Part shown: positions 977 through 57,902 of the stretch, piece after piece | Numbering within the stretch: position 1 is the stretch's first letter | Layout of the letters: every line of letters begins with the position of its first letter | Source: a bacterium | GTDB taxonomy: Bacteria; Armatimonadota; JACIXR01 | Assembly: GCA_014360495.1 (NCBI GenBank) | Contig: JACIXR010000007.1 | Location: 44,501 to 108,500 of the forward strand | Direction: 5' to 3' | DNA length: 64,000 nt | Position numbers and translations under genes: made by a program | Notes under the pieces: model-generated | Seen by the model: only the letters and a program-made list of their open reading frames with translations | Told to the model about the DNA's origin: nothing | Database searches by the model: none

Positions 977-980
<4 letters not shown>
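282..980 (-). CDS. ComF-family protein (phosphoribosyltransferase domain, ComFC-like)
   Basis: 232 aa. N-terminal Cys cluster (CLGYG...CDDC...CQLCG...CYFC) and PRTase motif VLLVDDVMTTGAT. Confidence 0.8.
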
Positions 981-4007
<3,027 letters not shown>

Positions 4008-5150: not shown

Positions 5151-5218
5151 TTATTAAAAGCGTCAAATACAAATTGCGTTTTTAAGTCACATCGTTCATC
5201 ATATTTTTGGTGATTAAA

Positions 5219-7282: not shown

Positions 7283-7339
7283 CCTTTTTCCCTTGCTTAA
7301 TTTTTTAAATCTGTTTTACTATTATTGGAGGTGATTAAA

Positions 7340-9570: not shown

Positions 9571-9590
9571 AATAAAGGAAAAAGGAGGCG

Positions 9591-10376: not shown

Positions 10377-10379
10377 AAG

Positions 10380-10871
10380 ATGAGACTTCTGCCGATTGAC
10401 ATCTTAGAAAAGCGGTTCAACAAAAAGCTCAGGGGCTACAATCCGAGGGAGGTAGACGAATTCCTCAATGAAGTATCAAAGAGTATGGGAGAGATACTGA
10501 TGGAGAACGCCTCCCTTAAGGAGGAGCTGGAGAAGGCTAAAGAGAAGCTATCCTACTTTGAGAAAATGGAGGAAACCCTTAGAAATGCCATCGTTCTTGC
10601 CCAGAAGACGGCAGATGAGGCAGTAGTAACCGCTCATAAGAGGGCGGAGGTGATATTGGAGGAAGCAAACAATAAGGCAAGGGAGATAATAGAGAAGGCT
10701 TATTTGGAGAAGCAGGAAATTCAGCGGGAGATAGAGGAGTTAAAAGAAAAGAAACATAGCTTGAAAGCCCAAATCCTGGGCATCATCAATACAATCGCTC
10801 AACTGCTTGAAGAGGAGGAGGAATGCGAAAAGGACTCCCAATCGCCGTCATCACAATCCTCTCCCTCTTAA
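10380..10871 (+). CDS. divIVA: DivIVA-domain cell-division protein
   Basis: 163 aa. N-terminal MRLLPIDILEKRFNKKLRGYNPREVDEFL, followed by coiled coil. Confidence 0.8.
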   Translation: MRLLPIDILEKRFNKKLRGYNPREVDEFLNEVSKSMGEILMENASLKEELEKAKEKLSYFEKMEETLRNAIVLAQKTADEAVVTAHKRAEVILEEANNKAREIIEKAYLEKQEIQREIEELKEKKHSLKAQILGIINTIAQLLEEEEECEKDSQSPSSQSSPS

Positions 10872-12142: not shown

Positions 12143-12173
12143 TATGTTAAACTTTTTTAGGAGAGTGATTTTT

Positions 12174-17490: not shown

Positions 17491-20400
17491 CTACTTCAAT
17501 CTATAGGCGAAAACTTCACATCCGCAAGCGAGAATCGCCTCGTCTCCCTCCCAATTCAATGGATAACTCCTCAACACCTTCCCCTCCTCATCTATTTCCT
17601 CAACGCTTTCCGCCCTCTTCACTTGCCAGGGAAGGGCGTTCCAATTGATTCTCACATTGAATTGCTGACTATCGGGAAGGGGCACGAGGAGAAGTGCATC
17701 TCCTTCCTTCGTCAATCTGAAAGCCCCATTCGTCCTTATACCCTGAAAATCTATCATCTTGCCTTGCGGGTTCAATCTCGCCAAAACGGGGTCCTCTTTC
17801 TCCTCCAATGGCGCCCAGCTTATAGAAGTTATCTCGCTCCCGCTTCCCTCCAGCTTTATCTTACCAAGCCTTATTCGCCTCGTTCCATCATCAAATCCCT
17901 CCAAACTCGCCCTCTCTCCCGTCTTTGGATCCCACATCCCTACCCTAATCTCGAACTCCTCGCCAGCCTTGAACTTCTCGGGAATGGAAAATCTCGCCGA
18001 GCTCCTAATCTTTCCCTCCCATTGGGTCGTGGGAATGGGAGGCTTATGGTCCGCTTGGAACATTATCTCGCCAGCTTTATCAACGAAATGAACGAAGATA
18101 TGCATATCTTTGGGCATCGGCTTTCCCGCCTCCCAAAGTAGCGTAAGCTCCGCCTCCCTATTTCCCACATATCTCAAAGATTCCAAGCTCACCTTCACCG
18201 GTGACCTCCCGCTGACTGGGCGGGCATTTACGAACAACATTGAGGGAGAACGAGACCAATCAACAATCACTCCCTCTTTCCTCTCAATTGCCATTTCCAC
18301 AACCCCACCTTCAACCGGCACCCTCGCATAAACCCCATATTCGGGTAGGATATGCCCCTCTACCTCCCAATCCTGCTTTCCCCTGTTAACCCATACCTCC
18401 CCTCCGTTGTTCCATCTGACGAATTGCCTGTGAATATCGCCATTTACAAATTGGACATCCTCAATATCTTTCAAGGCAAGAGCTCTCATTAAATCATGGA
18501 GAAGCCAATATTTGCGAACGACATCCCTTCCGAAGGGAGCAGGAACCATAGCGGGATGTCCAGTGAGGACTTCGGTAGCGATGTAATCGTCGCTATAGAT
18601 TCCGTGCAAGCGAGAATCAAGACCCGCTACATAGCGCCCCTCATAGCCTGCGCCGTGAAGAGCGAACCTGCTGTGATGCGCCATATCATACCAGGGAATT
18701 CTCTCCGCATCCCTGCATCGTATCGGCCAAACAGCCCAGCCATAATAGCCTGGCGGAGGTATATCAACCCTCAAATGATTCGTCTGTCCGCCATCAAGCC
18801 AACCAATCAACTGGTCGTGTCCGCTCTCGGAGATTTGGGGAGCGGAATCGCCGAGAAAATCCCTTATCCATGCGAAAGCCTTCCCCCATACCTCTTTTGT
18901 GTATAGCCTCGTATAGAACTTACCATCGTGAGTCCAATAATCATAAGGACAAATAGAGGACCAAACATCTATGAAATAGGCTGTGGGAGCGAAGCCCTCC
19001 TTTATGAGCTTGAGATTCCTCTCCAAGAAGGGGAAAACCTGGTCCGCTCGCCAGCGATAGGATTGCGCCTTTCTCCCTTCATTGAACCAAGCAGGAACGG
19101 GATTGCCCTCGTGGGTGAAAGCTATCTTCTTATAGGAAAAACCCTCCGCATCGGGGTAGAAGTCAATGTAATTATCGTGAGGAGCGAAGAGAACACCATG
19201 GCTCTTACAGGTATCCACGAGATAGAGGAAATCTTCAAAGGTGCCTAAATTGGGATTGGGTGGATAGATATCGGGGAGGCGATAATCATATCCCCACCTC
19301 TGCCAATTGTGCCAGACGACGATTGAATCAGTCAATCCGTAGCGGAAAGCTCTCTTCAAAGCTTCAGCGCTATCCCTATACATCCCTCCCCATAAATCAA
19401 AGACAAAGCGTCCAGCGAGCTTGTTAACTCCTTCCGCAGGTTTCAATCCGTTTATCTCCCGCCAGAGTTTCGCTCCCCGCCAGGCGGTTTCCGCGGGGAT
19501 GAGAGAAATGACTTGATTATGGGGAGTGTGGAGGGTATAGACCTTTCGCTCTGGTGAAACTTCAAGATTGCTCGGGACCGCATCTACCCCCTCAACCAAA
19601 GATAGACCGTTTTTGAAATCTAAGCCGACGAATGAAGTTGATAGCTGATGCCCATCAAACCATAGATTGAAAGCCTTAGGCTCGACGATGACATTTCCTA
19701 CTCCAGCATAGATTTTCTCCGCCTCCTCGCTCCATTCCCCAAGGGAGATATCCTCAATGTAAACCACGAGCCAGGGGCGTGCGGAAGGCACATTCTCAAG
19801 CCAGAACTTAACCCGTAGGGCTCCATTCTCCATCCAGATATCCGTTAATAGGTCGTAATCCCCCAGCCAATTGGAGAATGAATGCCTATAAATCAAATGC
19901 CCATCCTTCTGAGTTTTCTTTACCCCTTTAAACGAACTCGCCGAGCGCCAATCGCTAACATCATCTCCTAAGACCCTTACCCTAAACCCATTGAATAAAA
20001 GGCTCTTGGAATCGCTTATGAAACCGATGACGGAGTCAAGGATTCCCTTCTTCCCCTCCCAAATCCTCACCTCATAACCTCTTCCACCTATCTCAATACT
20101 TCCCAACTTAAGATATTTAGCATCAAGGGGTGGAGGGAAAACAGCCCTTTGTGGCGGTGTGCCAACCAATAAAGTTGGCTCAGCCCAATAAGAATCGTCG
20201 CAGGTAGTATCCTTTTTCGGTCCGGGATGGGATTCCAGCTGAAGGCGAATCGCCTCTCCAGCGTATTCGCTCAAATCCACCTCTCCTTCATCCCAAACCT
20301 TCGCCGATGTATGTCTCTCATAGACAATCTTGCCCTCCTCTCCATCCGGTGCGGAGAAGGGAAGGACCCTGACCCTGAATGTTACCCCGTCGCTTGGAGG

Positions 20401-24695: not shown

Positions 24696-25421
24696 CTACA
24701 TTCCATAATCCTCAGCATTTCTGCATAGAGGGTCTATGTAGATATTAGTATTACGATTTCCACTTGCGTCCATCTGCCCATCCCAATCGGGAACCTGCTC
24801 CCGCTTGAACGACTTCACATGCCCATCCACAAAGGCAATGTTAGCGGTATCGTTATGGCGAAAAGCAACCAAATGCCTCTGGTGGTCAGGCTCTTCCGGC
24901 AATGTTTGCCCACCCCAACAACAGCCATTCCTTTGAGAAATGGGATGCCATACCACATGGCATTCGCCAAACATCAATACTTTGGATGGTTGTGCGATTG
25001 AGGCAAGCGATACACCATGCGGGAACCAAAAATCCGGACCCAAGCATTTGTTCCAACCATAGCTCCAATCTTGCAATTCTAAAGGTGGCTGACCCTTGCT
25101 GGGGCATATCATAATCGCCTCGTTCTTAATGTAAGGGTAAATCCCTGCGTGCCGGTAGAGATATTGAACCGCCCAGCAACCAGGAGTTGGAGAACCACAA
25201 TAAGCGTCAGCTGTTAGGAAGAAATGCTCGTCCCAATCCTGAGCATACATCAACGCAGCGGTTGCCAGGTTCCTCATATTGCTCATACATTGGCTCTTCC
25301 TAGCCATCTCTCTCGCCCTTGAGAAAACCGGAAACAGAATGGCGGCGAGAATTGCTATGATAGCTATAACCACTAGTAATTCAATTAAGGTAAAACCTCT
25401 CTTTTTACTTTTCTTTATCAC
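24696..25421 (-). CDS. DUF1559 (H-X9-DG) protein with prepilin-type N-terminal cleavage/methylation domain
   Basis: 241 aa. [32 protein letters not shown]... and C-terminal [13 protein letters not shown] (H-X9-DG). Confidence 0.88.
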
Positions 25422-35584: not shown

Positions 35585-36127
35585 TCAATATTCTATCCCT
35601 TTACGGGGTGCGGTGCCCTTCTGGTAGGGATGCCTTACCATCTTCATCTCCGTTATGAGGTCAGCGATTTGCAAAATCTCCTCAGGGCAATTCCTACCTG
35701 TTATCACTATGTCCATCTTTCCAGCGAATTCCTTCAAAAAATCCAAAACCTCTTTTTTATCCAAAAGGGAGAGATTTATCGCCCAAGTCAGCTCGTCCAA
35801 GATGAGGAAATCGCATTTTCCCTCTTCCGCCCATCTTCTCGCTAAAGCGAAACCCACCCTCGCCAATTCCCTATCCTTTTCGCTTATCTCCCTTAATCCC
35901 TTGAAATCCTTCTCCTTTTCCAAAATCTCTTTTGGGACAGCGAAGCCTTTTTCTCCAAAGGTTTTTAAAAAGAAATTATCCAAATTTGACAAAACCTTCG
36001 CCTCGGATGTTGGGAACTTAAGAAATTGAACCATTAGCACTTTCCTCCCCGCCCCAAGCGCCCTTATCCCCATTCCTATTGCGGATGTCGTTTTGCCCTT
36101 TCCTTCGCCAGTGAGAACGAATATCAT
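35585..36127 (-). CDS. cobO: Cob(I)yrinic acid a,c-diamide / cob(I)alamin adenosyltransferase (CobA/CobO/BtuR type)
   Basis: MIFVLTGEGKGKTTSAIGMGIRALGAGRKVLMVQFLK P-loop signature and LILDELTWAI. Start chosen at ATG 36127, giving an ATGA overlap with the nrdJ stop; the ORF track start 36154 is an upstream extension. Confidence 0.85.
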   Translation of the reverse strand: MIFVLTGEGKGKTTSAIGMGIRALGAGRKVLMVQFLKFPTSEAKVLSNLDNFFLKTFGEKGFAVPKEILEKEKDFKGLREISEKDRELARVGFALARRWAEEGKCDFLILDELTWAINLSLLDKKEVLDFLKEFAGKMDIVITGRNCPEEILQIADLITEMKMVRHPYQKGTAPRKGIEY

Positions 36128-38670
36128 CCCGCAGCGCAAACGCTCCAACCACAATTAGGGCATATCTTACATCCCTCCTGCTGAAGCAGTGGCGTCTGAC
36201 ATACGGGACAAAGCTCCTCATCTTCCGAGACGCTCTTTCCCTCGCTGGGACCAAGCTTCAGGTAAATGGAGGGACCCTTTGCCTTCACATCCCTCATATC
36301 CGCCAGCTCTTCTGCTTTCCCCCTGCTCTCTTTCTCCCCACCAAAGGCATAAACGCCCTTTATTGACTTGTATCTGAAAACCGTTATATCCTTACATCCG
36401 AGCTCATGGGCAAGAAGGTAAGCCTTCTTTATATCCTCAACAGTTGCACTTGCGGGAAAGTTTATCGTTTTTGAAACGGAAGAATCGGTCCATTTCTGTA
36501 TCTCAGCGAGCGCCTTTATGTGGTCCTCCGCGGAAATATCAAGGGAAGTAACGAATACACGCTTCAAATGGGGCGGAATATAGGGGAGATTCTGACAGGA
36601 GCCCTCGTTCTCTGCGACATCTCTAATTAGCGCCTCGTCAAAAAGCCCTTCCCTTTCCATCAACTTCTCAAACACAGGATTCACATAGTAGAATGTGCCG
36701 ATTGAAACCCTTTTCTCATAAACGAGGCTGAAATTCGGCTCTACTCCAGCTGAACACCCAGCAATCATAGAGATGCTACCCGTGGGAGCAACGATTGTGG
36801 TATAGGCATTTCGCAAGCCATAAGCCTTTATCCCCTCCACAATGCTTTGCCAATCTTGACGCCAGCTCTCCTTTTCATAGAATCCCCTAAAGGGAAGCTT
36901 CCCCTCGGGGAAGAAGCTCTTCTTAAAGTAAGGGAAACTACCCCTTTCCTTAGCGAGTTGAATAGAAGCCACCTTTGAGTGGAAGTTGACGAACTCCATC
37001 AACCTTCCCATCCAATCCCTTCCCTCTTCGGAATCATAGGGAACCTCTAATTCATAGAGAAGGTCGGCTAAACCCATAATCCCCAAGCCTATTTTTCTCG
37101 TGTTTAGGCTCATTTCCTCTATCTCTGGGAGAGGATAATGATTGACATCCAGGATGTTATCAAGGAACTTGGTTGCCAGTTTAATAACTCTTGCGAGGTC
37201 ATCCCAATCTATTGATACCTCCCTGACTCCATTACGCTCCCTAACCCTTACGAAAGCCCAGAGGTTTATTGAACCGAGGTCGCAGGATTCGTTGGGATAT
37301 AAAAGCGATTCCCCACAGGGATTAGTTGTCTCAATTGGACCCAGGGTCTTGAGGAAAGGATTGTATTTGTTCGCGTTATCGGCGAAGATGACACCCGGCT
37401 CGGCTGATTCCCAGGCTTGATAGGCGATGAGGTCAAACAACGCATGCGGGTCAATGTATCTCATAACCTCACCAGTGCGGGGATTGACAAGTGGGTAAGG
37501 TTTTCTCTCCCGATAATAATCCCAGAACTCTGGCTTTATGAGGACGGAGATGTTGAAATTCCTCAACTGAAGATTTCCCCTCTTCGCGGTTATGAATTGC
37601 TCTATGTCGGGGTGGTTGGAGTTCAAAATCCCCATATTCGCTCCCCTTCTAATTCCGCCTTGCTTTATTACCTCCGTCATCTTATCAAAGAGGGTCATAA
37701 ATGTGACTGGTCCGGAAGCTGTTCCCGCAGTGCTCTTGACGAAATCTCCCGCTGGTCTCAGCTTGGAGAAGTTATATCCGACTCCACCGCCGGATTTGAA
37801 AATCAAGGCTGCGTTCTTAAGCGTCTCCATAATGGAGTAAAGGCTATCATCTATATCCAAAACGAAGCACGCGAGCCCCATCCCTAATTCCCTGCCGAAG
37901 TTGGCGAGAGCGGGCGTATTGGGGAAAAATTTCCTGTCCACCATTATCTGATAATAATCCTCCAGCTCCTTCTCATAATCATCAAACTCGCCCCTGCTCA
38001 ACATGTCAAGCAATTGGGAAAGGGGAATCTTCACCTTCCCCTTTTTATTAAATCTCTCATACATCCTGAAGAGCGCCTCTATATGAAAAGGATTAAGGAG
38101 ATACTTGCCTATCCTCAATTTCCCCTCATATTGCGTTGGAGAAAGCTTCTCCTTCGGCAGTGGCTTTCCACCCCTCTGGAAAACCCTCTCATCATACATT
38201 ATAGATGGCAAAACGACATGGGTCGCCACCCTCTGGAACAGCTCCTTAGGGGATTCTATTACCTTCCCTTGAGGGTCTTTCCTAAGATATCGGGAAGCGA
38301 GAACTCTGAGCCCATTTATATCAAACCTCTTATCAACCTCGTCTATCTCTGTTTTATTGAGGATTTGCTGCTTCTCCTTGCGAATTTCCGCCCTTTTCCT
38401 TCTATATAAAATATAGGCTTTAGCTACCCTCGCCTTCCCTTCCTCTATTAGGACTGCCTCAACTATATCTTGAACCTCTTCAACTTTAGGAATTTGCCAA
38501 GGCTGAAGCTTCTTCTCCAATATCTCCACAACCCTCTTGCTAAGCTTATCAGCGAGCTCGTAGTCGGGCTCTCCCACCGCCTCCATAGCCTTGAAGATAG
38601 CGTTTGTTATCTTCTCTCTCTCAAAAGGGACTACCTTTCCATCTCTTTTCTCAATTTTCTCTATTCTCAC
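36124..38670 (-). CDS. nrdJ: Ribonucleotide reductase, adenosylcobalamin-dependent (class II), with N-terminal ATP-cone and C-terminal Cys-rich zinc ribbon
   Basis: 848 aa. ATP-cone N-terminus (IEKRDGKVVPFEREKITNAIFKA); active-site NPCGE motif; C-terminal CPVCQ...CKICPNCGWSVC. No nrdB-like partner adjacent, and the next gene is cobO. Confidence 0.75.
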   Translation of the reverse strand: MRIEKIEKRDGKVVPFEREKITNAIFKAMEAVGEPDYELADKLSKRVVEILEKKLQPWQIPKVEEVQDIVEAVLIEEGKARVAKAYILYRRKRAEIRKEKQQILNKTEIDEVDKRFDINGLRVLASRYLRKDPQGKVIESPKELFQRVATHVVLPSIMYDERVFQRGGKPLPKEKLSPTQYEGKLRIGKYLLNPFHIEALFRMYERFNKKGKVKIPLSQLLDMLSRGEFDDYEKELEDYYQIMVDRKFFPNTPALANFGRELGMGLACFVLDIDDSLYSIMETLKNAALIFKSGGGVGYNFSKLRPAGDFVKSTAGTASGPVTFMTLFDKMTEVIKQGGIRRGANMGILNSNHPDIEQFITAKRGNLQLRNFNISVLIKPEFWDYYRERKPYPLVNPRTGEVMRYIDPHALFDLIAYQAWESAEPGVIFADNANKYNPFLKTLGPIETTNPCGESLLYPNESCDLGSINLWAFVRVRERNGVREVSIDWDDLARVIKLATKFLDNILDVNHYPLPEIEEMSLNTRKIGLGIMGLADLLYELEVPYDSEEGRDWMGRLMEFVNFHSKVASIQLAKERGSFPYFKKSFFPEGKLPFRGFYEKESWRQDWQSIVEGIKAYGLRNAYTTIVAPTGSISMIAGCSAGVEPNFSLVYEKRVSIGTFYYVNPVFEKLMEREGLFDEALIRDVAENEGSCQNLPYIPPHLKRVFVTSLDISAEDHIKALAEIQKWTDSSVSKTINFPASATVEDIKKAYLLAHELGCKDITVFRYKSIKGVYAFGGEKESRGKAEELADMRDVKAKGPSIYLKLGPSEGKSVSEDEELCPVCQTPLLQQEGCKICPNCGWSVCAAG

Positions 38671-50389: not shown

Positions 50390-50967
50390 TTTTCTTTCAC
50401 CTCTTTCTTGAATCTTTCCAATAGATTTAATGTTATTGCGTCGTCAGGGTATTTCTTCACCGCCTTCTCCAAAACCTCAACAGCTTCTTTTATCTTCCCC
50501 TGATTGTAGAGGGAATGGGCAAACATTCGCCAGACATAGGGAGGAGGTGAATAATCGGTGCAGGCTTTTCTGTAATATTCCTCCGCTTTTTTGTAATCCT
50601 TTCTCCTGAGATAGAAAAGCCCGATGTCGCTATAGGATTCCCAGGAGGGCGCCTTCTTCACCGCTTCCTCAAGCCATTTCCTCGCCTCCTCTTCCCTTCC
50701 CATACTATCGGCAAGCCAAGCGGATGTCAAATAAGCATCAACGAAGGAGGGGTCTAAAGTGATGATTAGCCTGTTTATTTTTATGCAGTAATCATATTCT
50801 CCCTCATGCCAGCAGTCGTCGCATCTTGCCCAGAGATAATCAACGAACTTATCTCTCATAGAGAGGAGAGGCTGTTTCATTTCCTTTGATTGGAAAAGGG
50901 AGAAGAGGAGAAGCCAAAAGGCACCTCCTCCAGCAAGGCAAAAGAGTTTTATATTTCCTTTCTTCAT
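50386..50967 (-). CDS. TPR-repeat protein with N-terminal signal/anchor
   Basis: Start chosen at MKKGNIKLFCLAGGGAFWLLLF; the ORF track start 51090 adds a 41-aa extension. TPR-like helices (...KDYKKAEEYYRKA...GKIKEAVEVLEKAVKKYP). ATGA overlap with the downstream lipoprotein gene. Confidence 0.55.
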   Translation of the reverse strand: MKKGNIKLFCLAGGGAFWLLLFSLFQSKEMKQPLLSMRDKFVDYLWARCDDCWHEGEYDYCIKINRLIITLDPSFVDAYLTSAWLADSMGREEEARKWLEEAVKKAPSWESYSDIGLFYLRRKDYKKAEEYYRKACTDYSPPPYVWRMFAHSLYNQGKIKEAVEVLEKAVKKYPDDAITLNLLERFKKEVKEK

Positions 50968-51174
50968 TTTCCTCTCCTTCCTTTCAATTATTAGAAATAT
51001 TTTAAATGAAAAATAAATAAAAATAAATAGTTTACTTGGTTTTGTTGCAAAATTGATATAGCCCCATAGGTACTGCTCTAATCGCCCCAAACTCGCTCAG
51101 CACATTTACAAATTTTCCGAACAATATTTATCAACAAAAACCTTTGACCTCTGTCCGAAATGCTTTAATAAAAG

Positions 51175-51203
51175 GTGTGCCCGCCCCCTGGGGGCGGGCA
51201 CAC
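51175..51203. promoter_or_regulatory. Perfect GC-rich palindrome (13-bp arms, 3-nt spacer): candidate operator or hairpin
   Basis: gtgtgcccgcccc-ctg-ggggcgggcacac. Lies in the divergent intergenic region between the TPR gene and mtaB. Confidence 0.5.
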
Positions 51204-51442
51204 TTGAAAGGAAAGGAGGTGAAAAAGATGAGGAAGAGGCTTCACGCTTCATTTTTATTAGACTATTAAGAGGGAAAAATGTTACACCCAAATAAAATGA
51301 AAGTTTTCGTTTCTTAATGTTTATTTGGGAATCTCTTTAACTCACCCCAGAATTTATTAAAGCAATTATAATCACCATAAGCGTATATTCAACCAACCTT
51401 CCTCTTTTCTCAATATTTACATCAATACCTAAGAATAAATTT

Positions 51443-51471
51443 TTTGACGACGGATAGATTTCCTACTAAAA
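51443..51471 (+). promoter_or_regulatory. Putative sigma70-type promoter of the mtaB operon
   Basis: TTGACG (51443-51448), 17-nt spacer, TAAAAT (51466-51471); followed by AGGAGG RBS and ATG 51503. Confidence 0.45.
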
Positions 51472-51502
51472 TAATTCAAAAATTTAGGAGGTTGATTTGG
51501 AT

Positions 51503-52870
51503 ATGAGTAGTATGGTTTATGAAAATTGGCAGGAGATGCTCTTCGGCATCTCAAAAAAGCCGATAAAGTGTGGCTTAGGCTTGGAGATTGGTTCAGGGGA
51601 GGTTATCCCCGAGATTAAGCCGCATCCTCGCCCCGGAATGGAAGCCAGCCTTGATTCACTGCTTGAAGAATACAAACGCATTACAAATGATATAATGGAG
51701 AGGGCAATAAAGCTTGGATTTCCCTCCATAATGTTGGAAATAGAACATGTTGCCCAACTCACCCTTAACCCGGCTTGGGGTGAAGAGGTCGTAAAGATTT
51801 GTAAGGATATCCTCCATAAATTTCATCAAAGATACGGGATAAAATGCGCTCTACGAGCCACGATAGCTGATGTGAGGAGGAGTGAGCATAATTTGAGGAA
51901 GAGCAAGGAGACAGACCTATTATTTGAATCTTTTGAAAGATGTGCCCGAGCGGGAGCAGATGTCCTCTCTATTGAATCAATAGGGGGCAAAGAGGTCTTC
52001 AATTACGCTCTCACTCGTCAGGATTTGCCAGGCATTCTCTTCGCCATAGCTGTATTGGGAAGCAGGGATATGGAATTTCTTTGGGATAGAATCGTTGAGA
52101 TAGCGGAGCAATACGAATCCATCCCGGGTGGAGATACGGATTGTGCCCACGCTAACACCGCGATGATGCTTGCTGGCGGGATGGTAGGGGGAGACTTCCC
52201 GCATACCGTTGCCGCTCTAATTAGAGCAATGGCGGGAGCCCGCTCTTTGGTTGCGGTGGAAAGGGGAGCTAAAGGACCTCTTAAGGATTGTGGATACGAA
52301 AACCCCATAATAAAGGCAATCACTGGTGTCCCAATATCCATGGAAGGGAAAACAGCTGCTTGCGCTCATATGGATTTAATGGGAAATCTCGCCGCCTCGG
52401 TATGCGACTTGTGGTCTAATGAGGCTGTTGAGTATAGAGATATGTTTGGTGGCACAACGATTGCCGTCTTCACGGAGATACTTGGCTACGATGCTTCTCT
52501 GTTCAACACAGCCCTCGCTACAGGCTACGCTGAGTGCTTAAGAGATTTGCTGGTTGCTTCTGATAAATATCGTGACCCTCAAGCATTGGTCATCTCACCA
52601 GATGTAGCCTGGGAAATCGGAAAAGTAGTAGCCGATACCCAAGGATATTACTTAAGGGCGAAAAGGGCTGTTCTTAAGGCTGGCGAAATAATTAAAAGAG
52701 AGTTAAAGGAAGGGAATTTACAAATTCCCCAACGGGAATTAGACGCCTTAGATTCCGCTCTCCTGCAACTTTCTTCCCTTCCTGACGATGAGGAGAAATT
52801 CACTCACGATATGAAGGGCAAATACGAAACACTTGTTGAGGATTTCCTTCCATCTTCCTATGACATCTAA
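51503..52870 (+). CDS. mtaB: Methanol:corrinoid methyltransferase, MtaB family
   Basis: From the Met at 51503 the protein reads SMVYENWQEMLFGISKKPIKCGLGLEIGSGEVIPEIKPHPRPG...EYKRITNDIMERAIKLGFPSIMLEIEHVAQLTLNPAWGEEV...YGIKCALRATIADVR. This closely parallels recalled Methanosarcina MtaB (SMAYANADEMTFGVSKYPVKAGLDLEIGAG...EYERITTDVMERAV...GIKCALRHTIGDIR). Conserved Cys positions (DTDCAHAN, AACAHMD) are present. The ORF track start is TTG 51497. Confidence 0.85.
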   Translation: MSSMVYENWQEMLFGISKKPIKCGLGLEIGSGEVIPEIKPHPRPGMEASLDSLLEEYKRITNDIMERAIKLGFPSIMLEIEHVAQLTLNPAWGEEVVKICKDILHKFHQRYGIKCALRATIADVRRSEHNLRKSKETDLLFESFERCARAGADVLSIESIGGKEVFNYALTRQDLPGILFAIAVLGSRDMEFLWDRIVEIAEQYESIPGGDTDCAHANTAMMLAGGMVGGDFPHTVAALIRAMAGARSLVAVERGAKGPLKDCGYENPIIKAITGVPISMEGKTAACAHMDLMGNLAASVCDLWSNEAVEYRDMFGGTTIAVFTEILGYDASLFNTALATGYAECLRDLLVASDKYRDPQALVISPDVAWEIGKVVADTQGYYLRAKRAVLKAGEIIKRELKEGNLQIPQRELDALDSALLQLSSLPDDEEKFTHDMKGKYETLVEDFLPSSYDI

Positions 52871-52885
52871 AAGGAGGTAATGCAA

Positions 52886-54631
52886 ATGTCTATCTTTAAA
52901 AATGTTTTAGCTTCGCTTTTGAGGGAAAGAAAAAGCTTTTACCCCTGCCTCTCCGCTAATCCAACGCCTACATTTGAGCAAATGAAGGCAGTTAATAGCT
53001 TCTTCCCCGCTGCTCATAAAGACCCCGAGAAGATGTCCCATTTAGCGATTGCAGGTCATAAATTAATCGGATTTGACGCAGTAAGAATCCCCTTCTGCCA
53101 AACTATTGAAGCGGAGGCGCTTGGTTGTGAGGTTTTCCTTGGTAGCGACAACATACCAACTGTCATATCCCATCCTTATCGCATAGGGGATAAGTTTATC
53201 CTTCCCGACGATATCTTAAAAAGGGGAAGAATACCCGTCCTCTTGGAAGCAATTAAAATTATCAAAGACGAAGTTAAGGAAGTGCCCCTCATAGTTGGAC
53301 TTGTTGGCCCTTTCACAATAACCGGCTATCTGTTTGGGATGACCCAACTTCTTATGCAGATGGCTATTTCACCCGAGGAGATTCTTCCTTACATGGAGAT
53401 GGCCCTACAGGTGAATGAAATTCTTGTTAAAGCTGTTGAGGAGGCGGGTGCTGACATAATCTGTGTTGAGGATATGACCGCCTCCACTGATATGATTAGT
53501 CCAGATATGTATAAAGATTTTATTCTTCCCTATCACGAAAAACTTTTTTCCTTTATATCTCTCCCCTCAATTCTCCACATTTGCGGGAATGTTACCCCTA
53601 TAATCGGATATATGGCTGAAACTGGTGCTGACGCCTTAAGCATTGATGATAAAACAGACTTGAGGAGGGCAAGAGATATTACTAAAATGAAAGTTACTTT
53701 GCTGGGTAATCTTAATCCTTCCACTACCCTTCTTCATGGGGACGAGAAAAAAGTTAGGGAAGCAACAAGAAAAGCCATCCGGGATGGAATCGACATAGTT
53801 GCTCCTGGCTGCGCCCTCCCCCTTGGTACCCCCTCTTCTAACCTGCGTGCGATGGTTGAGGAAACGCATAAGGCAAGCCTACCAAAGACCTTCACAGGAA
53901 TATCTGCTCCCATCTATCCCTTCAGACTCTACGGAATTGAAGAGAAAAAGGGAAAAGAAATAACCCCCGAAGTGGAAACTCCCTTTCCCCGTATAAGGGA
54001 AGCAGTGCTTAAAGGTAATAAAGAAGAATGCAGGAAGGCGACCGAGGAAGCCCTTTCAATAGCCAATCCCGAAGAAGTAATAGAGAAGGGATTGGTTAAG
54101 GCAATGGATGAGGTAGGGAAATTATGGGAAGAAGGCTACTTCTTCCTTCCCCAAGTTATGCTCTCCGCTGATGCTCTAATGGAGGGGTTAGAACTATGCG
54201 AGAGGAAAATGGGGGCAAGGTTGAAGAAAAAGGGGAAAGTGGTGCTTTTTGTGGCTAAAGGCGATATTCATACCATTGGCAAGAACATAGTGAAAGCACT
54301 CCTTTCTGCTTCTGGGTTTGAAGTAATAGATTTAGGAGTGGATATTGATGATGAGGAGGTTATAAGGGCAGTGAAGAAGCATAAACCGGTTCTTTTGGGG
54401 GGTTCGGCACTTATGACCACGACTATGTCTGCATTTCCCCGCATCGCCAAAAGACTTCTGGAGGAGGGTATAGAAATCCCCTTTGCCTGTGGAGGAGGAG
54501 CAGTTAATGAGGAATTTTGTGATACATTCCCCCTGGGCATATATGGAGGTGAAGCGAGAAGGGCTCCGCTGATTGCTGAGGCAGCGTTAGAGGGTAAGAA
54601 TTGGAGAGAAATCAAAGAAATGTTTCGTTAA
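52886..54631 (+). CDS. Fused MtaA-like methylcobamide methyltransferase (URO-D fold) and MtaC-like corrinoid (B12-binding) protein
   Basis: N-terminal about 340 aa match recalled archaeal MtaA (RGRIPVLLEAIKIIKDEV; LHICGNVTPI; VAPGCALPLGTP). C-terminus has a helical cap plus Rossmann B12-binding domain with the DxHxxG motif (KGDIHTIGKN) and GGSALMTTT. AGGAGG RBS 8 nt upstream of ATG 52886; 15-nt gap after mtaB. Confidence 0.85.
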   Translation: MSIFKNVLASLLRERKSFYPCLSANPTPTFEQMKAVNSFFPAAHKDPEKMSHLAIAGHKLIGFDAVRIPFCQTIEAEALGCEVFLGSDNIPTVISHPYRIGDKFILPDDILKRGRIPVLLEAIKIIKDEVKEVPLIVGLVGPFTITGYLFGMTQLLMQMAISPEEILPYMEMALQVNEILVKAVEEAGADIICVEDMTASTDMISPDMYKDFILPYHEKLFSFISLPSILHICGNVTPIIGYMAETGADALSIDDKTDLRRARDITKMKVTLLGNLNPSTTLLHGDEKKVREATRKAIRDGIDIVAPGCALPLGTPSSNLRAMVEETHKASLPKTFTGISAPIYPFRLYGIEEKKGKEITPEVETPFPRIREAVLKGNKEECRKATEEALSIANPEEVIEKGLVKAMDEVGKLWEEGYFFLPQVMLSADALMEGLELCERKMGARLKKKGKVVLFVAKGDIHTIGKNIVKALLSASGFEVIDLGVDIDDEEVIRAVKKHKPVLLGGSALMTTTMSAFPRIAKRLLEEGIEIPFACGGGAVNEEFCDTFPLGIYGGEARRAPLIAEAALEGKNWREIKEMFR

Positions 54632-54659: not shown

Positions 54660-57600
54660 TTAGAAGGAGCGGGTGAGGTCGAGCCTGAGACCGACATTGT
54701 TCTTCCCCTTGAAGTTATCGGTGTAGTAGCCGGACAAGCTGAGGGAGTTCTCAGGATTTATGTTGCGAGAATAGGAGAACCTGTAGGTTATTCCACCAAC
54801 CTTGTCTCCCGCAATTGAGGAGTAGTCAAGGCTAACAGAGGTATCAAGCGTCTCATAAGCGGAAAGCTTGCCGGAGATGGCAAAAAGGCTCTTGTAAACT
54901 CCCTTATTTTCCCTCTCTATGAAGTTGTATTCGTGGCATCCCTTGAAGGAAAGCTTATCGTTGAGAGGGAATGCAATCTCCCAATTGAGCTTTCTGGTAA
55001 GCTTCTTATTTGGGTCGGGAACATTATCAAGAAGCGCAATCTTCAAGTTGAACTTCGGGGAAGGAGTGTATTGAAGTGCATACTGCTTGTTCATCTTTCC
55101 ATTCATATAATTGCTATCCAGAATGTATTCACCAGAAAGGACTGGAGAGCCCTGATATTTCAAGACGACCCTCTTGGTATTGAGGACATTTCCCTTTTGG
55201 TCCTCGGGATTTCTCAACAAAGAAAGGGTGAAGGTCTTCCCATCAAAGGGATAGACGATATCCAATCCCCTCGTCGTCTTGTCGTTCTGCCCGCTCCTAT
55301 CCTTGAAGGTGAAGCTGAGCTTATAGGGGGCACCTTGAGGTTGATAATTAGCCTGAAGCAGGCGGTAAGAGTTGGATTTATCTCCGAGGGACTGGATTCC
55401 ATATGCGAGATTGCCAGTTAAACCTGGGATGAAAGTCCTCGTTAAGGAGAATTCCTGCTTCTTTCCGTCCTTCCCGTTTTGCGTCATCTTGATGTTCTCC
55501 GCTTTAAACTGGGATTGGGAATCAAGTTTTTGAACAAGAGCTATCCTCCTGAAGCTGTGCTCCGCGCTTTCCTTAAAGGAAAAGCTCAAGGTTCCCGCTT
55601 TTCCTTTAAGCAAAGGAGAGTTGATATCAATGCTTCCTTCGTCAATTCTCTTGCCATCCTCCAGATTTTTACGAGAAAAGTTAAGGGCGTAGGAGAAGTT
55701 TTTCTTCAAAGACTGGTTAAAGTTTATAACGGTCAAATCGGACTGAAATTCCTTATCCCCTTCCTTCCTGTATCCCTGCATCCTCTGGAGTTTGAGGTGA
55801 GCATTGGCGAAGGCTTTCTCAACTATCAGGTTATAGATGTCGTTGGAACGATTAACATCGCTAACCTGCTTGGTGGAATCCAAAGTGAGATAGGCTTTCA
55901 GATTATTCTTGCCGGTGAATGCCAAGTTATGGACGCTATGGGTTGTGGATTTGCCCCACATCCCGTCGCTCCTCGTGATATCCAAGCTCTCTATCTTGGT
56001 GATGGAGGTGGAGAAGGCAAGATTCTTTGAGAGAGGCAATGCAAGGAAGAAGTCCTTCTTCTCCGCGGACCTCTCCTGGGCAAGGCGTCCCTTGTCAGCC
56101 TCTGCTAAATCCGCAAATCTCGTGAACGATGGGTCTATGGTTTGAGTTGCGAAGCGGAAAATAGGCTGGTCCTTCACTTTCAGCTCTATGCTCTTCCCGT
56201 CAATTGAACCTTGAGAGTCCCCTATCTTGCGAGAGGATAGAGAAAGGGTCAAGCCCGGCAGGAGGTTATCAAGCTTGAAATTACCGCTCAAGAGGGATTT
56301 CTTTATTCCCCATTCATTGGCAAATCTCTTCTTTTCCGGGTCGGTCAAATCTCCGAAACGCCTGAACCCCTCGCTGAACTCACTCTTATAGAACGAGATT
56401 TGCCACTTATCGCTCTTCAATTGTAGGCTGTTGCCCTTCCAACCTTCTTTCCCATCCAATAAGCTAGCGATGCTAAAGGAAGTCTGCAATTTAGGCGAGA
56501 AGTTGAACGAACCCTCAATGGTCTTCCTCGCCAACCCCTTTTCCTTTGCGAGCTGACCAGCGTCGGGCTCAGTTAAATTGCCAAAGCGAGCGAAATCCCG
56601 TCCAACTTCCTGCTTGCTGATTGAAAGGGAGAAATTCTTCCCCTTCAAGTCCAATTTCCCCCTCTCAATTCCATCCTTCTCATCTTTTATCCTCGTCTGG
56701 GAAAGGTTGAGGGTAATATTGGGGAGAAGATTCTTGGAAAGTTCCAGTGAATTCCTGCTTATCCCAATCTCCTTCGCCCATATTTTCGCTTCCGGCTCGT
56801 TCAAATCCTTCCCCCTCACGAAATCGGAGGTTATGCTTTGCTGGGTTAGACGGAGGAACTCGTTGTTATTGCCCTTTAGCTCTATCTGCCTCAATTTTCC
56901 CTCCCCTTTACCGTCGGTGGCGGATTTGTAAACAGTGGAAAGGGAAAGCGAATCGGAGAGCTTTATCTGCCCAGAGATTATCTGCTTGGTGATTCCCTTC
57001 TCCCTTGCCACTCCTTGGTTGCCCTTCGTTTGGGGGTCAACGGTTTGGCGAGTGAAGGAAAGGGAAAAAGCGGAGCTTTGGTAGCCAACTCCAAACTTCT
57101 TCGTGCCCGCCTCCTGCTTGAGGAAGGCAACATCCTTGCCGTTTAGATTATCGGGAATTCCCTGAGCGAGGAAATCCTTGTCTATCTCCTGATAGAAGAG
57201 GGTCAGCTTCCCCTTCCCCAAGGAGTAATCCAACCAGTTGGCGAAAGCCTTGCCTTTCTGGGAGGGAGCAGGGGCAGCGTTATCCCTTGTCATACCAGCA
57301 AGATAGTTATTCGTTGGTGATGTTCTGCTGAAGAAGAGGAGTCCCCTCCAAGTCGCATTGGAGCTCAACTTTGAGGTCAAGTCACTGCCGACAATCCAAG
57401 TCTCCATCTTATCCTGACCCGCTACAGCGGGGCGGAAGAAAGTAAATAGGCTGAGGGTAGATGAACCGCCGTTGAACGCAAGCTGGAGAGGCAGTCCGCT
57501 TGGAGATTGATTCTGCTTATTCGGGTCATAGTGATAAGAGACGATGAGGGTTCCCGATTTTATGTCCCCAGGGAGGAGAATCGTTCCATTAGCGTAATCA

Positions 57601-57854
57601 ATGATATAATCTACATCCCGCTTGAGGAAGCGCCCATTTGCGATTACCTTCTCGCTTCCCTCCACTATCCCCCTATGGGAGAGATAGAATACGCCACCCT
57701 TTACCACCTTCAGGGTGTCTGTGTAGAAAAGGGCTCCCTGTACGGCTGGCGCCTCATTCTGAAACCTCAAGGCTCCATTGGGCGCCGGCAATTCAAGGGA
57801 AAAAGCAAGGGAAGCTATCAAGCTAATTAAACTCAAAAATAGGAAACGCTTCAT
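54660..57854 (-). CDS. Giant outer-membrane-like protein with internal ~45-aa degenerate repeats and C-terminal aromatic residue
   Basis: Signal peptide MKRFLFLSLISLIASLAFS, taking the start at the internal Met 57854; the ORF track start is 57884. At least five repeats of type [D/E]F.RFG.L.[ED]P.... (DFARFGNLTEPDAG..., GFRRFGDLTDPEKK..., SFTRFADLAEADKG...). Ends ...GLRLDLTRSF, as in beta-barrel OMPs. Confidence 0.5.
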   Translation of the reverse strand: MKRFLFLSLISLIASLAFSLELPAPNGALRFQNEAPAVQGALFYTDTLKVVKGGVFYLSHRGIVEGSEKVIANGRFLKRDVDYIIDYANGTILLPGDIKSGTLIVSYHYDPNKQNQSPSGLPLQLAFNGGSSTLSLFTFFRPAVAGQDKMETWIVGSDLTSKLSSNATWRGLLFFSRTSPTNNYLAGMTRDNAAPAPSQKGKAFANWLDYSLGKGKLTLFYQEIDKDFLAQGIPDNLNGKDVAFLKQEAGTKKFGVGYQSSAFSLSFTRQTVDPQTKGNQGVAREKGITKQIISGQIKLSDSLSLSTVYKSATDGKGEGKLRQIELKGNNNEFLRLTQQSITSDFVRGKDLNEPEAKIWAKEIGISRNSLELSKNLLPNITLNLSQTRIKDEKDGIERGKLDLKGKNFSLSISKQEVGRDFARFGNLTEPDAGQLAKEKGLARKTIEGSFNFSPKLQTSFSIASLLDGKEGWKGNSLQLKSDKWQISFYKSEFSEGFRRFGDLTDPEKKRFANEWGIKKSLLSGNFKLDNLLPGLTLSLSSRKIGDSQGSIDGKSIELKVKDQPIFRFATQTIDPSFTRFADLAEADKGRLAQERSAEKKDFFLALPLSKNLAFSTSITKIESLDITRSDGMWGKSTTHSVHNLAFTGKNNLKAYLTLDSTKQVSDVNRSNDIYNLIVEKAFANAHLKLQRMQGYRKEGDKEFQSDLTVINFNQSLKKNFSYALNFSRKNLEDGKRIDEGSIDINSPLLKGKAGTLSFSFKESAEHSFRRIALVQKLDSQSQFKAENIKMTQNGKDGKKQEFSLTRTFIPGLTGNLAYGIQSLGDKSNSYRLLQANYQPQGAPYKLSFTFKDRSGQNDKTTRGLDIVYPFDGKTFTLSLLRNPEDQKGNVLNTKRVVLKYQGSPVLSGEYILDSNYMNGKMNKQYALQYTPSPKFNLKIALLDNVPDPNKKLTRKLNWEIAFPLNDKLSFKGCHEYNFIERENKGVYKSLFAISGKLSAYETLDTSVSLDYSSIAGDKVGGITYRFSYSRNINPENSLSLSGYYTDNFKGKNNVGLRLDLTRSF

Positions 57855-57902
57855 AGTTTCTCTCACCTCCTTGGGGACCACCATCGGGGTTCAACTCCCA
57901 AA

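Follow-up and report, generated by a model that had tools for sequence, protein, structure and literature searches.

Two adjacent genes in a 64-kb stretch of bacterial DNA (64,000 nucleotides, hereafter the window) had been read in the initial annotation as an archaeal-type methanol methyltransferase module, and we asked whether the pair supplies the functions of MtaB, MtaA and MtaC and to which acceptor the methyl group would be passed. The genes tig-clpP-clpX-lon, valS, glyQS and those for DivIVA and an anti-sigma factor, all present in the window, agree with the bacterial host that had been proposed, and the cobO and nrdJ genes reported with the pair were found about 15 kb from it. The two genes of interest are separated by 15 nt and form one operon in which the second gene is an mtaA-mtaC fusion (Table 1). 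The putative promoter upstream of mtaB is listed as a candidate only, since shuffled sequence gave at least as many promoter-type matches in the consensus scan. The MtaB and fusion protein pair was found on 4 independent contigs, with the fusion 100% identical to P0001 / MBC7330136.1, and the fusion is therefore not an assembly artefact.

Table 1. Positions of the gene pair, its signals, domains and ligand residues, and of cobO and nrdJ
Feature	Position	Strand	Details and basis
cobO	35585-36154		Pfam PF02572
nrdJ	36124-38670		TIGR02504, 689 vs 400 bits
Candidate sigma-70-like promoter TTGACG-17-TAAAAT 5' of mtaB	51444..51472	+	consensus scan, 10/12 matches
RBS AGGAGG of mtaB	51487..51492	+	direct reading; 10 nt 5' of ATG 51503
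mtaB	51503..52870	+	455 aa; other possible start TTG 51497; NCBI MBC7330135.1
MtaB zinc-ligand codons	E158 51974-51976; C214 52142-52144; C263 52289-52291	+	alignment to 2I2X_A
RBS AAGGAGG between mtaB and fusion gene	52871..52877	+	direct reading; 8 nt 5' of ATG 52886
mtaA-mtaC fusion gene	52886..54631	+	581 aa; other possible ATG 52880; NCBI MBC7330136.1 start = 52886
MtaA-type URO-D-fold methyltransferase domain (MT2)	52901..53872	+	PF01208 aa 8-331, E 3e-74; TIGR01463
Clade-specific pocket residues N25, R67, Q72, I90, E195 (fusion-protein numbering)	within 52901..53872	+	pocket comparison
MtaA-domain Zn ligand codons	H231 53576-53578; C233 53582-53584; C309 53810-53812	+	alignment to M. 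mazei MtaA
Flexible interdomain linker, residues 335-363	53888..53974	+	AlphaFold2 pLDDT <50
B12-binding cap (four-helix bundle)	53990..54199	+	PF02607 aa 371-440, 85 bits, E 4e-24; aligns to M. barkeri MtaC 2I2X_B
Rossmann-type B12-binding domain	54233..54508	+	PF02310 aa 452-543, 80.5 bits, E 1e-22
D460-I-H462-T-I-G465 motif (DxHxxG)	54263-54280	+	H462 aligns to MtaC lower axial ligand H136

The product of the first gene matched Pfam PF12176 end to end (652.7 bits against a cut-off of 25, E 4e-196; residues 3-456 on profile positions 4-460 of 460) and was 51% identical to M. barkeri MtaB (PDB 2I2X_A) over 454 residues (E 3.7e-151), with E158, C214 and C263 aligned to the zinc ligands E164, C220 and C269 of that enzyme. 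Against the methanogen equivalog MtaB_Meth (NF040651) it scored 648.4 bits, below the cut-off of 720, and for this reason we infer methanol as its substrate from the 51-55% identity to known MtaB proteins.

The fusion protein passed the cut-off of the NCBIfam MtaA/CmuA subfamily TIGR01463 (285.3 against 235.4 bits), and its N-terminal domain matched M. mazei MtaA (PDB 4AY7) both in sequence (E 2e-68) and in a Foldseek comparison of the AlphaFold2 model (TM 0.93, rmsd 1.4 A). The MtaA strings quoted by the initial annotation are real and align to M. mazei MtaA as RGRIPVVLEAIKIIRE, LHICGNV and LAPGC, while H231, C233 and C309 align with H237, C239 and C316. The C-terminal part combines a B12-binding_2 cap, a B12-binding Rossmann domain and the annotated DxHxxG motif, as in MtaC-like proteins, and the M. 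barkeri MtaC structure 2I2X_B was its best Foldseek match (TM 0.73, AlphaFold2 model). The model of the whole fusion (mean pLDDT 86.4, below 50 solely in the linker) consists of two confident domains joined by a disordered stretch, about 30 residues long. H231, C233, C309, D460, H462 and G465 were invariant in 35/35 fusion proteins. With all four Pfam profiles (PF12176, PF01208, PF02607 and PF02310) matched and every zinc and cobalamin ligand present on alignment, the earlier reading of two coupled genes encoding the MtaB, MtaA and MtaC functions was borne out. The top-scoring NCBIfam model for the fusion was MtaA_Meth (NF040654), at 332.1 bits against an equivalog cut-off of 400, and the corrinoid domain scored 242.5 and 257.1 bits against the MtaC_Meth and MtaC2_Meth cut-offs of 420 and 450.

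All phylogenetic trees were constructed by neighbour-joining. The MtaA domain grouped with Desku_0050 of Desulfofundulus (Desulfotomaculum) kuznetsovii, apart from M. mazei MtaA and the outgroup, in 100/100 quartet bootstraps, and on these sequence comparisons it is placed in a large bacterial clade including Desku_0050 while methanogen MtaA lies elsewhere. The MtaA, MtaB and MtaC parts are 41, 55 and 50% identical to D. kuznetsovii and 38, 51 and 48% to Methanosarcina. The term archaeal-type is thus inaccurate, D. kuznetsovii being slightly closer and no methanogen equivalog cut-off having been reached. Monophyly of the fused proteins was not resolved in the neighbour-joining trees. The MtaBs linked to fusions clustered apart from those of D. 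kuznetsovii and M. barkeri in 91-92/100 quartet bootstraps, which points to co-evolution of MtaB with its fusion partner.

The acceptor pocket was compared at positions T28, Q29, R70, L75, Q94 and A201 of Methanosarcina MtaA, as defined by AF3-guided mutagenesis and not by a CoM-bound crystal structure (PMC13618148). At these positions the MtaA domain of the window carries N, P, R, Q, I and E, with R70 alone kept. The bacterial clade is marked by N28, Q75 and E201, in contrast to T28, L75 and A201 of CoM-methylating MtaA; Q75 and E201 occurred together in 31/31 fused and 65/65 standalone bacterial sequences, while the methanogen-like group had L75 with A, C or G at 201. The zinc His-Cys-Cys site was invariant in the fused and essentially so in the standalone Q75/E201 members (96 clade members in all). 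Because the clade pocket differs from that of CoM-methylating MtaA, CoM is an unlikely acceptor. Methanogen-type chemistry, in which the MtaA domain would methylate CoM made by the bacterium or imported, could draw on the best score of MtaA_Meth, the near-identical fold of M. mazei MtaA and the retention of R70 and the zinc ligands. We nevertheless consider it highly improbable: that score is under the equivalog cut-off, the quartets separate the domain from methanogen MtaA, four of the six pocket residues are changed (T28N, L75Q, Q94I, A201E), the invariant carboxylate of E201 would on the inferred geometry sit near the CoM sulfonate, the clade is spread over bacteria without known CoM synthesis, and no CoM biosynthesis gene was found in the window. 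Metagenome annotation now labels both types of MtaA 'CoM methyltransferase', and N28/Q75/E201 together with the zinc His-Cys-Cys site provides a sequence rule by which the bacterial type can be told apart from probable CoM methylases.

Fusions of this kind are rare: 5.8 billion proteins contained about 36 clusters of them at 90% identity. The mtaB gene lies directly 5' of the fusion in the window, in 8/8 bacterial loci retrieved by protein look-up and in 6/6 intact fused loci of a metagenome scan, one of which is on the same contig as locus L091. The standalone Q75/E201 genes were found in mtaA-mtaC-cobW-...-mtaB-RACo clusters (27 loci) or beside the pyrrolysine-type genes MttB, MtbB or MtmB. 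This association with RACo and with either MtaB or methylamine methyltransferases of the pyrrolysine type suggests that the clade is a generic bacterial methyltransferase 2, and since it is the usual partner of this kind for bacterial methanol and methylamine methyltransferases the acceptor is probably not CoM.

The MtaA/CmuA family itself invites another assignment. In CmuA of chloromethane-degrading Methylobacterium and Hyphomicrobium, likened to the fusion by architecture and TIGR01463, an N-terminal MtaA-like domain likewise precedes a C-terminal corrinoid domain. In CmuA the methyltransferase domain charges the corrinoid with the methyl group of chloromethane, which a second protein, the pterin-type CmuB, delivers to tetrahydrofolate. 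By analogy with CmuA or MtsA, the MtaA-like domain of the window might act as methyltransferase 1 and charge the corrinoid domain on its own chain from a second donor such as a methylthiol or methyl halide, with the true methyltransferase 2 encoded elsewhere. Such a role is suggested by the shared domain order and the protein name 'MtaA/CmuA family', by the recurrence throughout this family of A>C fusions whose pockets are many and varied, and by four loci (L005, L090, L099 and L102) in which the pair is accompanied by additional UroD paralogues and a separately encoded corrinoid protein. It is improbable all the same, since the window has a dedicated loader in MtaB, the fusion is strictly paired with a co-evolved mtaB, no CmuB-like gene was found near the pair, and the standalone clade members are the sole recurrent methyltransferase 2 candidate where MtaB, MttB, MtbB or MtmB is present. 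A Type 1 mlp gene cluster as defined by Kountz & Balskus (at least two Mlp proteins, a corrinoid protein and Ram/RACE, no MtaB) was ruled out, the operon having one MtaA-like domain and MtaB and lacking Ram/RACE.

The surroundings of the pair were also analysed. Its divergent upstream neighbours encode a TPR protein and a solute-binding protein, and its convergent downstream neighbours a 1074-aa protein without family match and an anti-sigma factor. In relatives the surroundings of the pair are quite varied. Glycan hydrolases do occur in the window, as the initial annotation had stated, but they are not immediate neighbours of the pair: the nearest are at least 16-17 kb away, and no glycan gene in the window is operonic with it. 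As to pectin as a conjectured source of the methanol, no pectin methylesterase was matched among the scanned window ORFs of at least 150 aa. No RACo Pfam match, and hence no RamA/RACo corrinoid reductive activase, was found in the 64 kb; the activase needed for sustained activity must be encoded outside the window or replaced. Among the fused loci RACo adjoins the module in L005 alone, while it is present in most standalone clusters. The lack of an adjoining activase or regulator, and a genomic position that changes among relatives 72-76% identical, could suggest an inactive remnant of horizontal transfer. This is barely credible given the intact reading frames, strong ribosome-binding sites, invariant catalytic ligands and unremarkable GC content. 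Moreover, genomes with SufD proteins just 33-38% identical have MtaB proteins that are 80-84% identical, which indicates strong purifying selection on MtaB. Several diverged genomes carry the pair inside a sufCBDSU-...-hcp operon.

We therefore consider it reasonably probable that the pair is a self-contained cobamide-dependent methanol methyl-transfer module whose acceptor is not CoM. The Glu-Cys-Cys zinc site of MtaB would activate methanol and MtaB would methylate the Co(I) corrinoid, held base-off/His-on in the C-terminal MtaC-type domain of the fusion. Held by a disordered tether (about 30 residues), the corrinoid domain may then swing across to the MtaA-type barrel at the N-terminus of its own chain, and the His-Cys-Cys zinc site of this barrel would methylate a small molecule as acceptor. 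The analysis itself established the domain identities, conserved ligands, operon, clade membership and pocket differences, and the substrate, direction of transfer and acceptor are proposed. The fusion may have arisen by joining of a neighbouring mtaA-mtaC pair, a gene order common in bacterial clusters.

Within the UroD superfamily His-Cys-Cys is the signature of S/Se-methyltransferases (PMC10418091), and the fusion carries the site that distinguishes the S-methylating UroD-fold corrinoid methyltransferases. Because this site is invariant, a thiol-type acceptor, for which our expectation is a little short of even, is favoured on sequence over tetrahydrofolate, which we regard as a lesser though serious candidate. 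Methylotrophy in the manner of D. kuznetsovii would mean biology that is already known, here in a fused format: the MtaA-type domain would methylate tetrahydrofolate, and methyl-tetrahydrofolate would be oxidised along the Wood-Ljungdahl methyl branch or consumed in biosynthesis. This route was proposed for D. kuznetsovii MtaABC, the nearest studied relative (PMC5770442). D. kuznetsovii requires methyl-tetrahydrofolate for methanol oxidation. A universal acceptor would also fit a clade found in many bacterial phyla with methanol, TMA, DMA and MMA methyltransferases; its Glu, Gln and Asn pocket residues are of a kind that may bind pterin, and the clusters hold no other recurrent candidate for a tetrahydrofolate methyltransferase. 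We regard this route as possible but doubtful. Tetrahydrofolate methylation is known from enzymes of the pterin-binding MeTr type and of the MtrH type and is not known from a UroD fold (PMC10418091, PMC13391211), and it is hard to see what the zinc site, retained by essentially all 96 clade members, would do in N5-methylation. An MtrH homologue, found in the D. kuznetsovii locus and in 6/80 metagenome loci, could methylate tetrahydrofolate instead. No Wood-Ljungdahl or folate C1 gene was found in the 64-kb window, and the Pfam scan of its ORFs of at least 150 aa gave no pterin-binding (MeTr-type) MtaA beside mtaB or mtaC; likewise, no Pterin_bind protein was recurrent among the sampled 137 of 241 unclassified neighbour ORFs.

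A more specific form of the thiol reading, which we put forward tentatively, is that the Q75/E201 clade including the fusion methylates a non-CoM thiol (sulfide or persulfide, homocysteine or another low-molecular-weight thiol) and that in these uncultured glycan degraders the pair would act as a housekeeping, MetH-like 'methanol-dependent thiol methylase'. Methanethiol or methionine might then be made from methanol, and a second UroD family, O-demethylase-like and encoded in glycan loci, might use the module as a common methyl sink. The embedding in sufCBDSU-...-hcp and the better conservation of MtaB than of the Suf proteins fit this non-CoM thiol reading and not classical methylotrophy. Corrinoid methanol and methylamine methyltransferases are now known from many anaerobes that are neither methanogens nor acetogens, and tetrahydrofolate as their acceptor is an assumption. 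If the acceptor is a thiol, the view of how methanol released from plant polymers in anoxic habitats reaches C1 and sulfur metabolism would change. With two genes, and the carrier and second methyltransferase on one chain, the locus is a minimal system convenient for expression and direct acceptor tests.

A bacterium whose Mta system resembles that of methanogens had been described in 2018 (PMC5770442). The nearest studied homologues are MtaA-MtaB-MtaC of D. kuznetsovii 17T (Desku_0050-0052, AEG13700-13702), which were more abundant on methanol with cobalt (PMC5770442), while a strain without Desku_0050-0052 has the alcohol dehydrogenase route alone (PMC10907483). Both hosts are bacteria with a methanogen-like MtaB, and D. 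kuznetsovii MtaA has the Q75/E201 pocket and His-Cys-Cys site seen in the window. They differ in that D. kuznetsovii, a sulfate reducer, has three separate genes in the order mtaA-mtaB-mtaC on a large island that also encodes CobW, two RACo activases, additional corrinoid proteins and UroD paralogues, the MtrH homologue and CobO, whereas in the uncultured glycan degrader of the window mtaB comes first, mtaA and mtaC are fused and the pair has no adjacent accessory gene.

Methanosarcina MtaB/MtaC (2I2X) and MtaA (4AY7) have folds, metal and cobalamin ligands and, on the proposed mechanism, the overall three-step chemistry in common with the window, but MtaA is a separate protein there and has T28, Q29, L75, Q94 and A201 in place of N, P, Q, I and E. 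The MtsD/MtsF/MtsH-type proteins of Methanosarcinales, which act on methyl sulfides and CoM, also carry a corrinoid domain and a UroD-fold zinc methyltransferase on one polypeptide, in the reverse order (corrinoid 8-187 and methyltransferase 313-619 in Methanolobus L084, 22% identical to the MtaA domain of the window).

Acetogen MtaABC (Acetobacterium woodii, Eubacterium callanderi, and MtaA1B1C1 of Moorella thermoacetica) has homologous MtaB and MtaC and methanol as donor, with an MtaA of the pterin-binding type. Moorella also has solitary mtaA copies, which we take to be of the UroD type. The MtaA of acetogens, about 30 kDa in size, is unrelated and uses tetrahydrofolate as acceptor (PMC13391211). 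The pair does not nest in the acetogen clade. The solitary Moorella copies are down-regulated on methanol, and Mothe_c14370 is mentioned as an 'mtaA and mtaC fused' gene (PMC13391211); among the 36 full-length fusion matches, many without an organism name, there was no named Moorella protein.

Multi-domain MetH structures appear among the Foldseek matches of the fusion model. In the logic proposed here the fusion resembles MetH, which has on one chain a zinc barrel that methylates a thiol and a cobalamin module of cap-plus-Rossmann type that shuttles between donor and acceptor barrels. MetH differs in having a homocysteine barrel of a different family and in carrying the folate barrel and the reactivation domain on that same chain, where the window keeps its donor barrel, MtaB, as a separate protein.

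Analysis of the mtaB product revealed a match to the Pfam MtaB profile along its entire length (E 4e-196) and 51% identity to the M. barkeri MtaB sequence of the crystal structure 2I2X_A, and alignment indicated that the zinc ligands E164, C220 and C269 of M. barkeri are kept as E158, C214 and C263. The adjacent gene on the same strand starts 15 nt after the mtaB stop codon, with AAGGAGG in the gap, and codes for a single protein in which Pfam identified a URO-D domain (aa 8-331), a B12-binding_2 cap (aa 371-440) and a B12-binding Rossmann domain (aa 452-543). In sequence comparisons this protein aligned both with MtaA of M. mazei (4AY7, E 2e-68) and with MtaC of M. barkeri (2I2X_B, E 2e-62); the MtaA zinc ligands H237, C239 and C316 correspond to H231, C233 and C309, and the cobalamin motif DxHxxG is present as D460-I-H462-T-I-G465. 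An AlphaFold2 model built on an alignment of 35 family members (mean pLDDT 86.4) consists of two confidently modelled domains joined by a disordered linker (residues 335-363), and Foldseek placed it on 4AY7 (TM 0.93, rmsd 1.4 A) and on 2I2X_B (TM 0.73), confirming the folds of both domains. The identical protein pair was found on four independent contigs, and also in NCBI under MBC7330135.1 and MBC7330136.1. The initial annotation had read these genes as a coupled pair supplying MtaB, MtaA and MtaC, the latter two fused; the profiles, alignments, ligands, predicted structure and coordinates confirm that the observation is real and the domain dissection correct. Judged from its sequence, the pair is a bacterial, fused variant of the known three-component methanol methyltransferase system.

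Features of the window and of related loci, with positions in the numbering of each sequence
Sequence	Feature	Position	Strand	Remarks
Window	S-adenosylhomocysteine hydrolase	1702-2961	-	
Window	second, distant UroD protein, 376 aa	16352-17482	+	PF01208, 36 bits
Window	N_methyl/DUF1559 protein, type IV pilin-like	24696-25421	-	
Window	hairpin and mini-ORF element	51175-51203 and 51229-51270		no Rfam match
Window	mtaB	51503-52870	+	alternative TTG start 51497
Window	mtaA-mtaC fusion gene	52886-54631	+	alternative ATG 52880
Window	1074-aa protein	54660-57884	-	signal-peptide-like N-terminus, C-terminal Phe; no Pfam or NCBIfam match
L087 (D. kuznetsovii CP002770)	MtrH-family gene of the methanol island	18889-19824		
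L091	suf-mtaB-fusion-hcp stretch	3839-13129		
L092	suf-mtaB-fusion-hcp stretch	363-9427		
L094	suf-mtaB-fusion-hcp stretch	583-9675		
L098	suf-mtaB-fusion-hcp stretch	1699-10963		

The label "archaeal-type" that had been given to the pair did not hold. MtaB is widespread in bacteria and the MtaB tree intermixes archaea and bacteria; the window protein shares 55% identity with the D. kuznetsovii MtaB and 49-51% with the methanogen MtaBs. The D. kuznetsovii locus codes for a UroD-type MtaA (Desku_0050), MtaB and MtaC, and among the named and structurally solved homologues compared these were the best for all three parts of the window system (41%, 55% and 50% identity, respectively). All 100 quartet bootstraps paired the window MtaA domain with Desku_0050 rather than with the M. 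mazei MtaA. The fusions of Archaeoglobaceae joined M. mazei MtaA with the same support (100/100) and therefore represent an independent fusion. The D. kuznetsovii system has been described as nearer to methanogens than to acetogens and as induced by methanol plus cobalt (Sousa et al., PMC5770442), and a strain without the central genes is described as using the alcohol dehydrogenase only (PMC10907483). The window proteins do not nest within an acetogen clade either, since the acetogen MtaA, at about 30 kDa, is another protein (PMC13391211). The pair thus belongs to a bacterial lineage that had already been noticed. In the MtaB tree, P0181, a protein labelled 'Armatimonadetes bacterium', is nearly identical to the D. 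kuznetsovii MtaB (P0156), which suggests a recent transfer or a mis-binned contig.

Six active-site positions used in MtaA engineering (T28, Q29, R70, L75, Q94 and A201; PMC13618148) were read across the alignment. Methanogen-like MtaA pockets carry T at position 28, L at 75, Q at 94 and A, C or G at 201, while the bacterial clade, comprising 31 fused and 65 standalone proteins including Desku_0050, carries mostly N at 28, Q at 75 (100%), I or L at 94 and E at 201 (100%). In an unbiased representative set this Q75/E201 signature was present in 7 fused and 12 standalone clusters at 50% identity. CoM is an unlikely acceptor of the clade because the pocket is changed, a new carboxylate is present and the hosts are not known to make CoM. 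A thiol or selenol could quite plausibly take its place, since the His-Cys-Cys set, the S/Se-methyltransferase signature of the UroD superfamily (PMC10418091), is strictly kept: all fused proteins have it, as do essentially all standalone members. Tetrahydrofolate is a somewhat less probable candidate, as it is assumed in the literature and would be allowed by the Glu, Gln and Asn residues of the pocket. The D. kuznetsovii methanol island also has an MtrH-family gene, adjoining genes for a corrinoid protein, RACo and a further UroD paralogue, which is an alternative candidate for the tetrahydrofolate-methylating step; the portions of the methanol literature covered here contain no discussion of it in this role.

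A metagenome scan with patterns specific to the Q75/E201 signature recovered the contexts of the standalone genes. At 27 loci these form mtaA-mtaC-cobW-(AmiS/UreI channel)-(sigma-54 regulator)-mtaB-RACo clusters, and the adjacency of mtaA and mtaC in them explains the origin of the fusion. The conserved clusters of the standalone loci (L103-L174) contain a sigma-54 response regulator (27 loci), a 176-aa AmiS/UreI-family channel (16 loci) and a GAF-PAS histidine kinase (12 loci), along with CobW, CobO and RACo, the channel being a possible methanol pore; the fused form of the window is unaccompanied by any of these. Other standalone Q75/E201 genes adjoin MttB, MtbB or MtmB genes, with RACo (MttB/MtbB-type loci L123, L128-L131, L137, L144, L151, L156, L167 and L169). 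There the MttB and Dimeth_Pyl (MtbB) reading frames end close to where a pyrrolysine UAG is expected (about residue 337 or 353), and genes for MtmB and for a PylB-like radical SAM protein also occur; these loci are predicted to be bacterial pyrrolysine-dependent methylamine systems using a methyltransferase 2 of the Q75/E201 type. As its genes accompany both methanol and methylamine methyltransferases, the clade is therefore a generic bacterial methyltransferase 2. MtrH was present in only 6 of 80 metagenome loci, and of the 241 neighbour ORFs without a classification, 137 were sampled and showed no recurrent Pterin_bind protein.

The three-domain fusion is uncommon. Among 5.8 billion proteins, searched by a word index, about 36 clusters with this architecture were found. 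All come from metagenomes or MAGs, and where a source is named it is 'bacterium', Armatimonadota or, once, an Archaeoglobaceae archaeon. When 1.84 billion representatives were searched exhaustively with a profile, about a dozen of the 2739 matches (E up to 1e-30) were full-length colinear fusions. Scanning genome contigs with generic corrinoid-domain patterns drawn from the full fusion alignment gave among the matches listed only corrinoid proteins and adjacent unfused pairs (30-40% identity). Searched for in the literature, an MtaA-MtaC fusion beside mtaB yielded a one-line mention of a fused Moorella gene and unrelated uses of 'MtaAC'. In every bacterial fused locus fetched (L004, L005 and L088-L094, and the metagenome loci L095, L096, L098-L100 and L102) mtaB immediately precedes the fusion gene, and 91-92 of 100 quartet bootstraps put the fusion-linked MtaBs together, apart from those of D. 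kuznetsovii and M. barkeri; the two genes therefore behave as one co-evolving unit. No mtaB adjoins the Archaeoglobaceae fusion. Strict monophyly of the fused proteins was not supported (exact-clade bootstrap support 0-4%), and quartets indicated that the group P0016-P0028 may branch outside the window clade and the standalone proteins together; the fused proteins may go back to one fusion event or to several.

Outside the pair the context is highly variable, even between relatives 72-76% identical. In L091, L092, L094 and L098 the pair is located within sufC-sufB-sufD-sufS-sufU-mtaB-fusion-hcp, with a sufU-mtaB gap of 3-25 bp; L100 shows the arrangement as well, but is the same JGI contig as L091. 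Comparison of L091, L092 and L094 revealed that MtaB is better conserved than SufC, SufD or SufS (MtaB 80-84% identical, SufD only 33-38%). This embedding and conservation hint at a housekeeping or sulfur-linked role of the pair. In L089, nifS-nadA-nifU adjoin the pair on the divergent strand, and in L088 mnmA-nadA lie upstream of it.

In the window, the pair is flanked upstream by divergent genes for a TPR protein and an SBP_bac_1 solute-binding protein, and downstream by convergent genes for the 1074-aa protein, which is kept beside the pair in L001 and L002 and may be an outer-membrane beta-barrel, and for a zf-HC2 anti-sigma factor. The polysaccharide-hydrolase surroundings noted in the initial annotation were borne out for the window, which holds a GH51-type arabinofuranosidase and RGL11-like, GH42-like, GH123-like and DUF2961 proteins, but not for the immediate neighbours, none of which is a hydrolase. 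The cobamide-related genes it had named, cobO and the class II, cobalamin-dependent ribonucleotide reductase nrdJ, were both found. Housekeeping genes comprise tig-clpP-clpX-lon, valS, polX, glyQ/glyS and those for DivIVA, the zf-HC2 anti-sigma factor and S-adenosylhomocysteine hydrolase, the last of which indicates a methyl cycle yielding homocysteine in the organism. The nearest ValS relatives are 71-94% identical, after which identity falls to 54% or less in proteins of many phyla; the host is therefore an uncultured bacterium whose lineage has no close named kin. N_methyl/DUF1559 pilin-like proteins such as the one encoded here are typical of Planctomycetota, Verrucomicrobiota and Armatimonadota-like genomes, and this protein, together with P0021, gives a weak hint of Armatimonadota. 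Among the scanned window ORFs of at least 150 aa there was no pectin methylesterase, CoM biosynthesis gene, Wood-Ljungdahl gene, RamA/RACo activase or pterin methyltransferase. Base composition was not informative on horizontal transfer (43-46% GC in the pair region, about 47% in the window). No cobalamin riboswitch or other leader RNA reached gathering scores anywhere in the window, and none was detected upstream of mtaB in 50900-51700 even at E up to 1. The 400-bp region upstream of mtaB contains a perfect 13-bp GC-rich hairpin, GTGTGCCCGCCCC-CAG-GGGGCGGGCACAC, after which come a ribosome-binding site (GGAGGTG) and a mini-ORF of 13 codons, MRKRLHASFLLDY.

The second UroD gene is flanked by genes for a GH123/CBM9 protein and a DUF5696 protein. 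Where MtaA has its zinc ligands, its product carries Asp-x-Asp...Asp-His, a carboxylate-type site described for O-demethylases. In L005 and L090 the mtaB-fusion module has orthologues of it (34-41% identity) in the same cluster, and in L099 and L102 family members; in L089 the orthologue and a GH42-like gene share a 4-bp overlap. The protein may demethylate methylated sugars in a corrinoid-dependent reaction, and the best lead from the corrinoid system to glycan-derived methyl groups is this protein, not a physical link between mtaB and hydrolases.

The interest of the pair lies in its compact architecture, in a pocket that is specific to the clade and speaks against CoM, and in the question of the acceptor. 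Its nearest studied relative is the MtaABC system of D. kuznetsovii (Desku_0050-0052), and the nearest architectural analogue of the fusion is CmuA.
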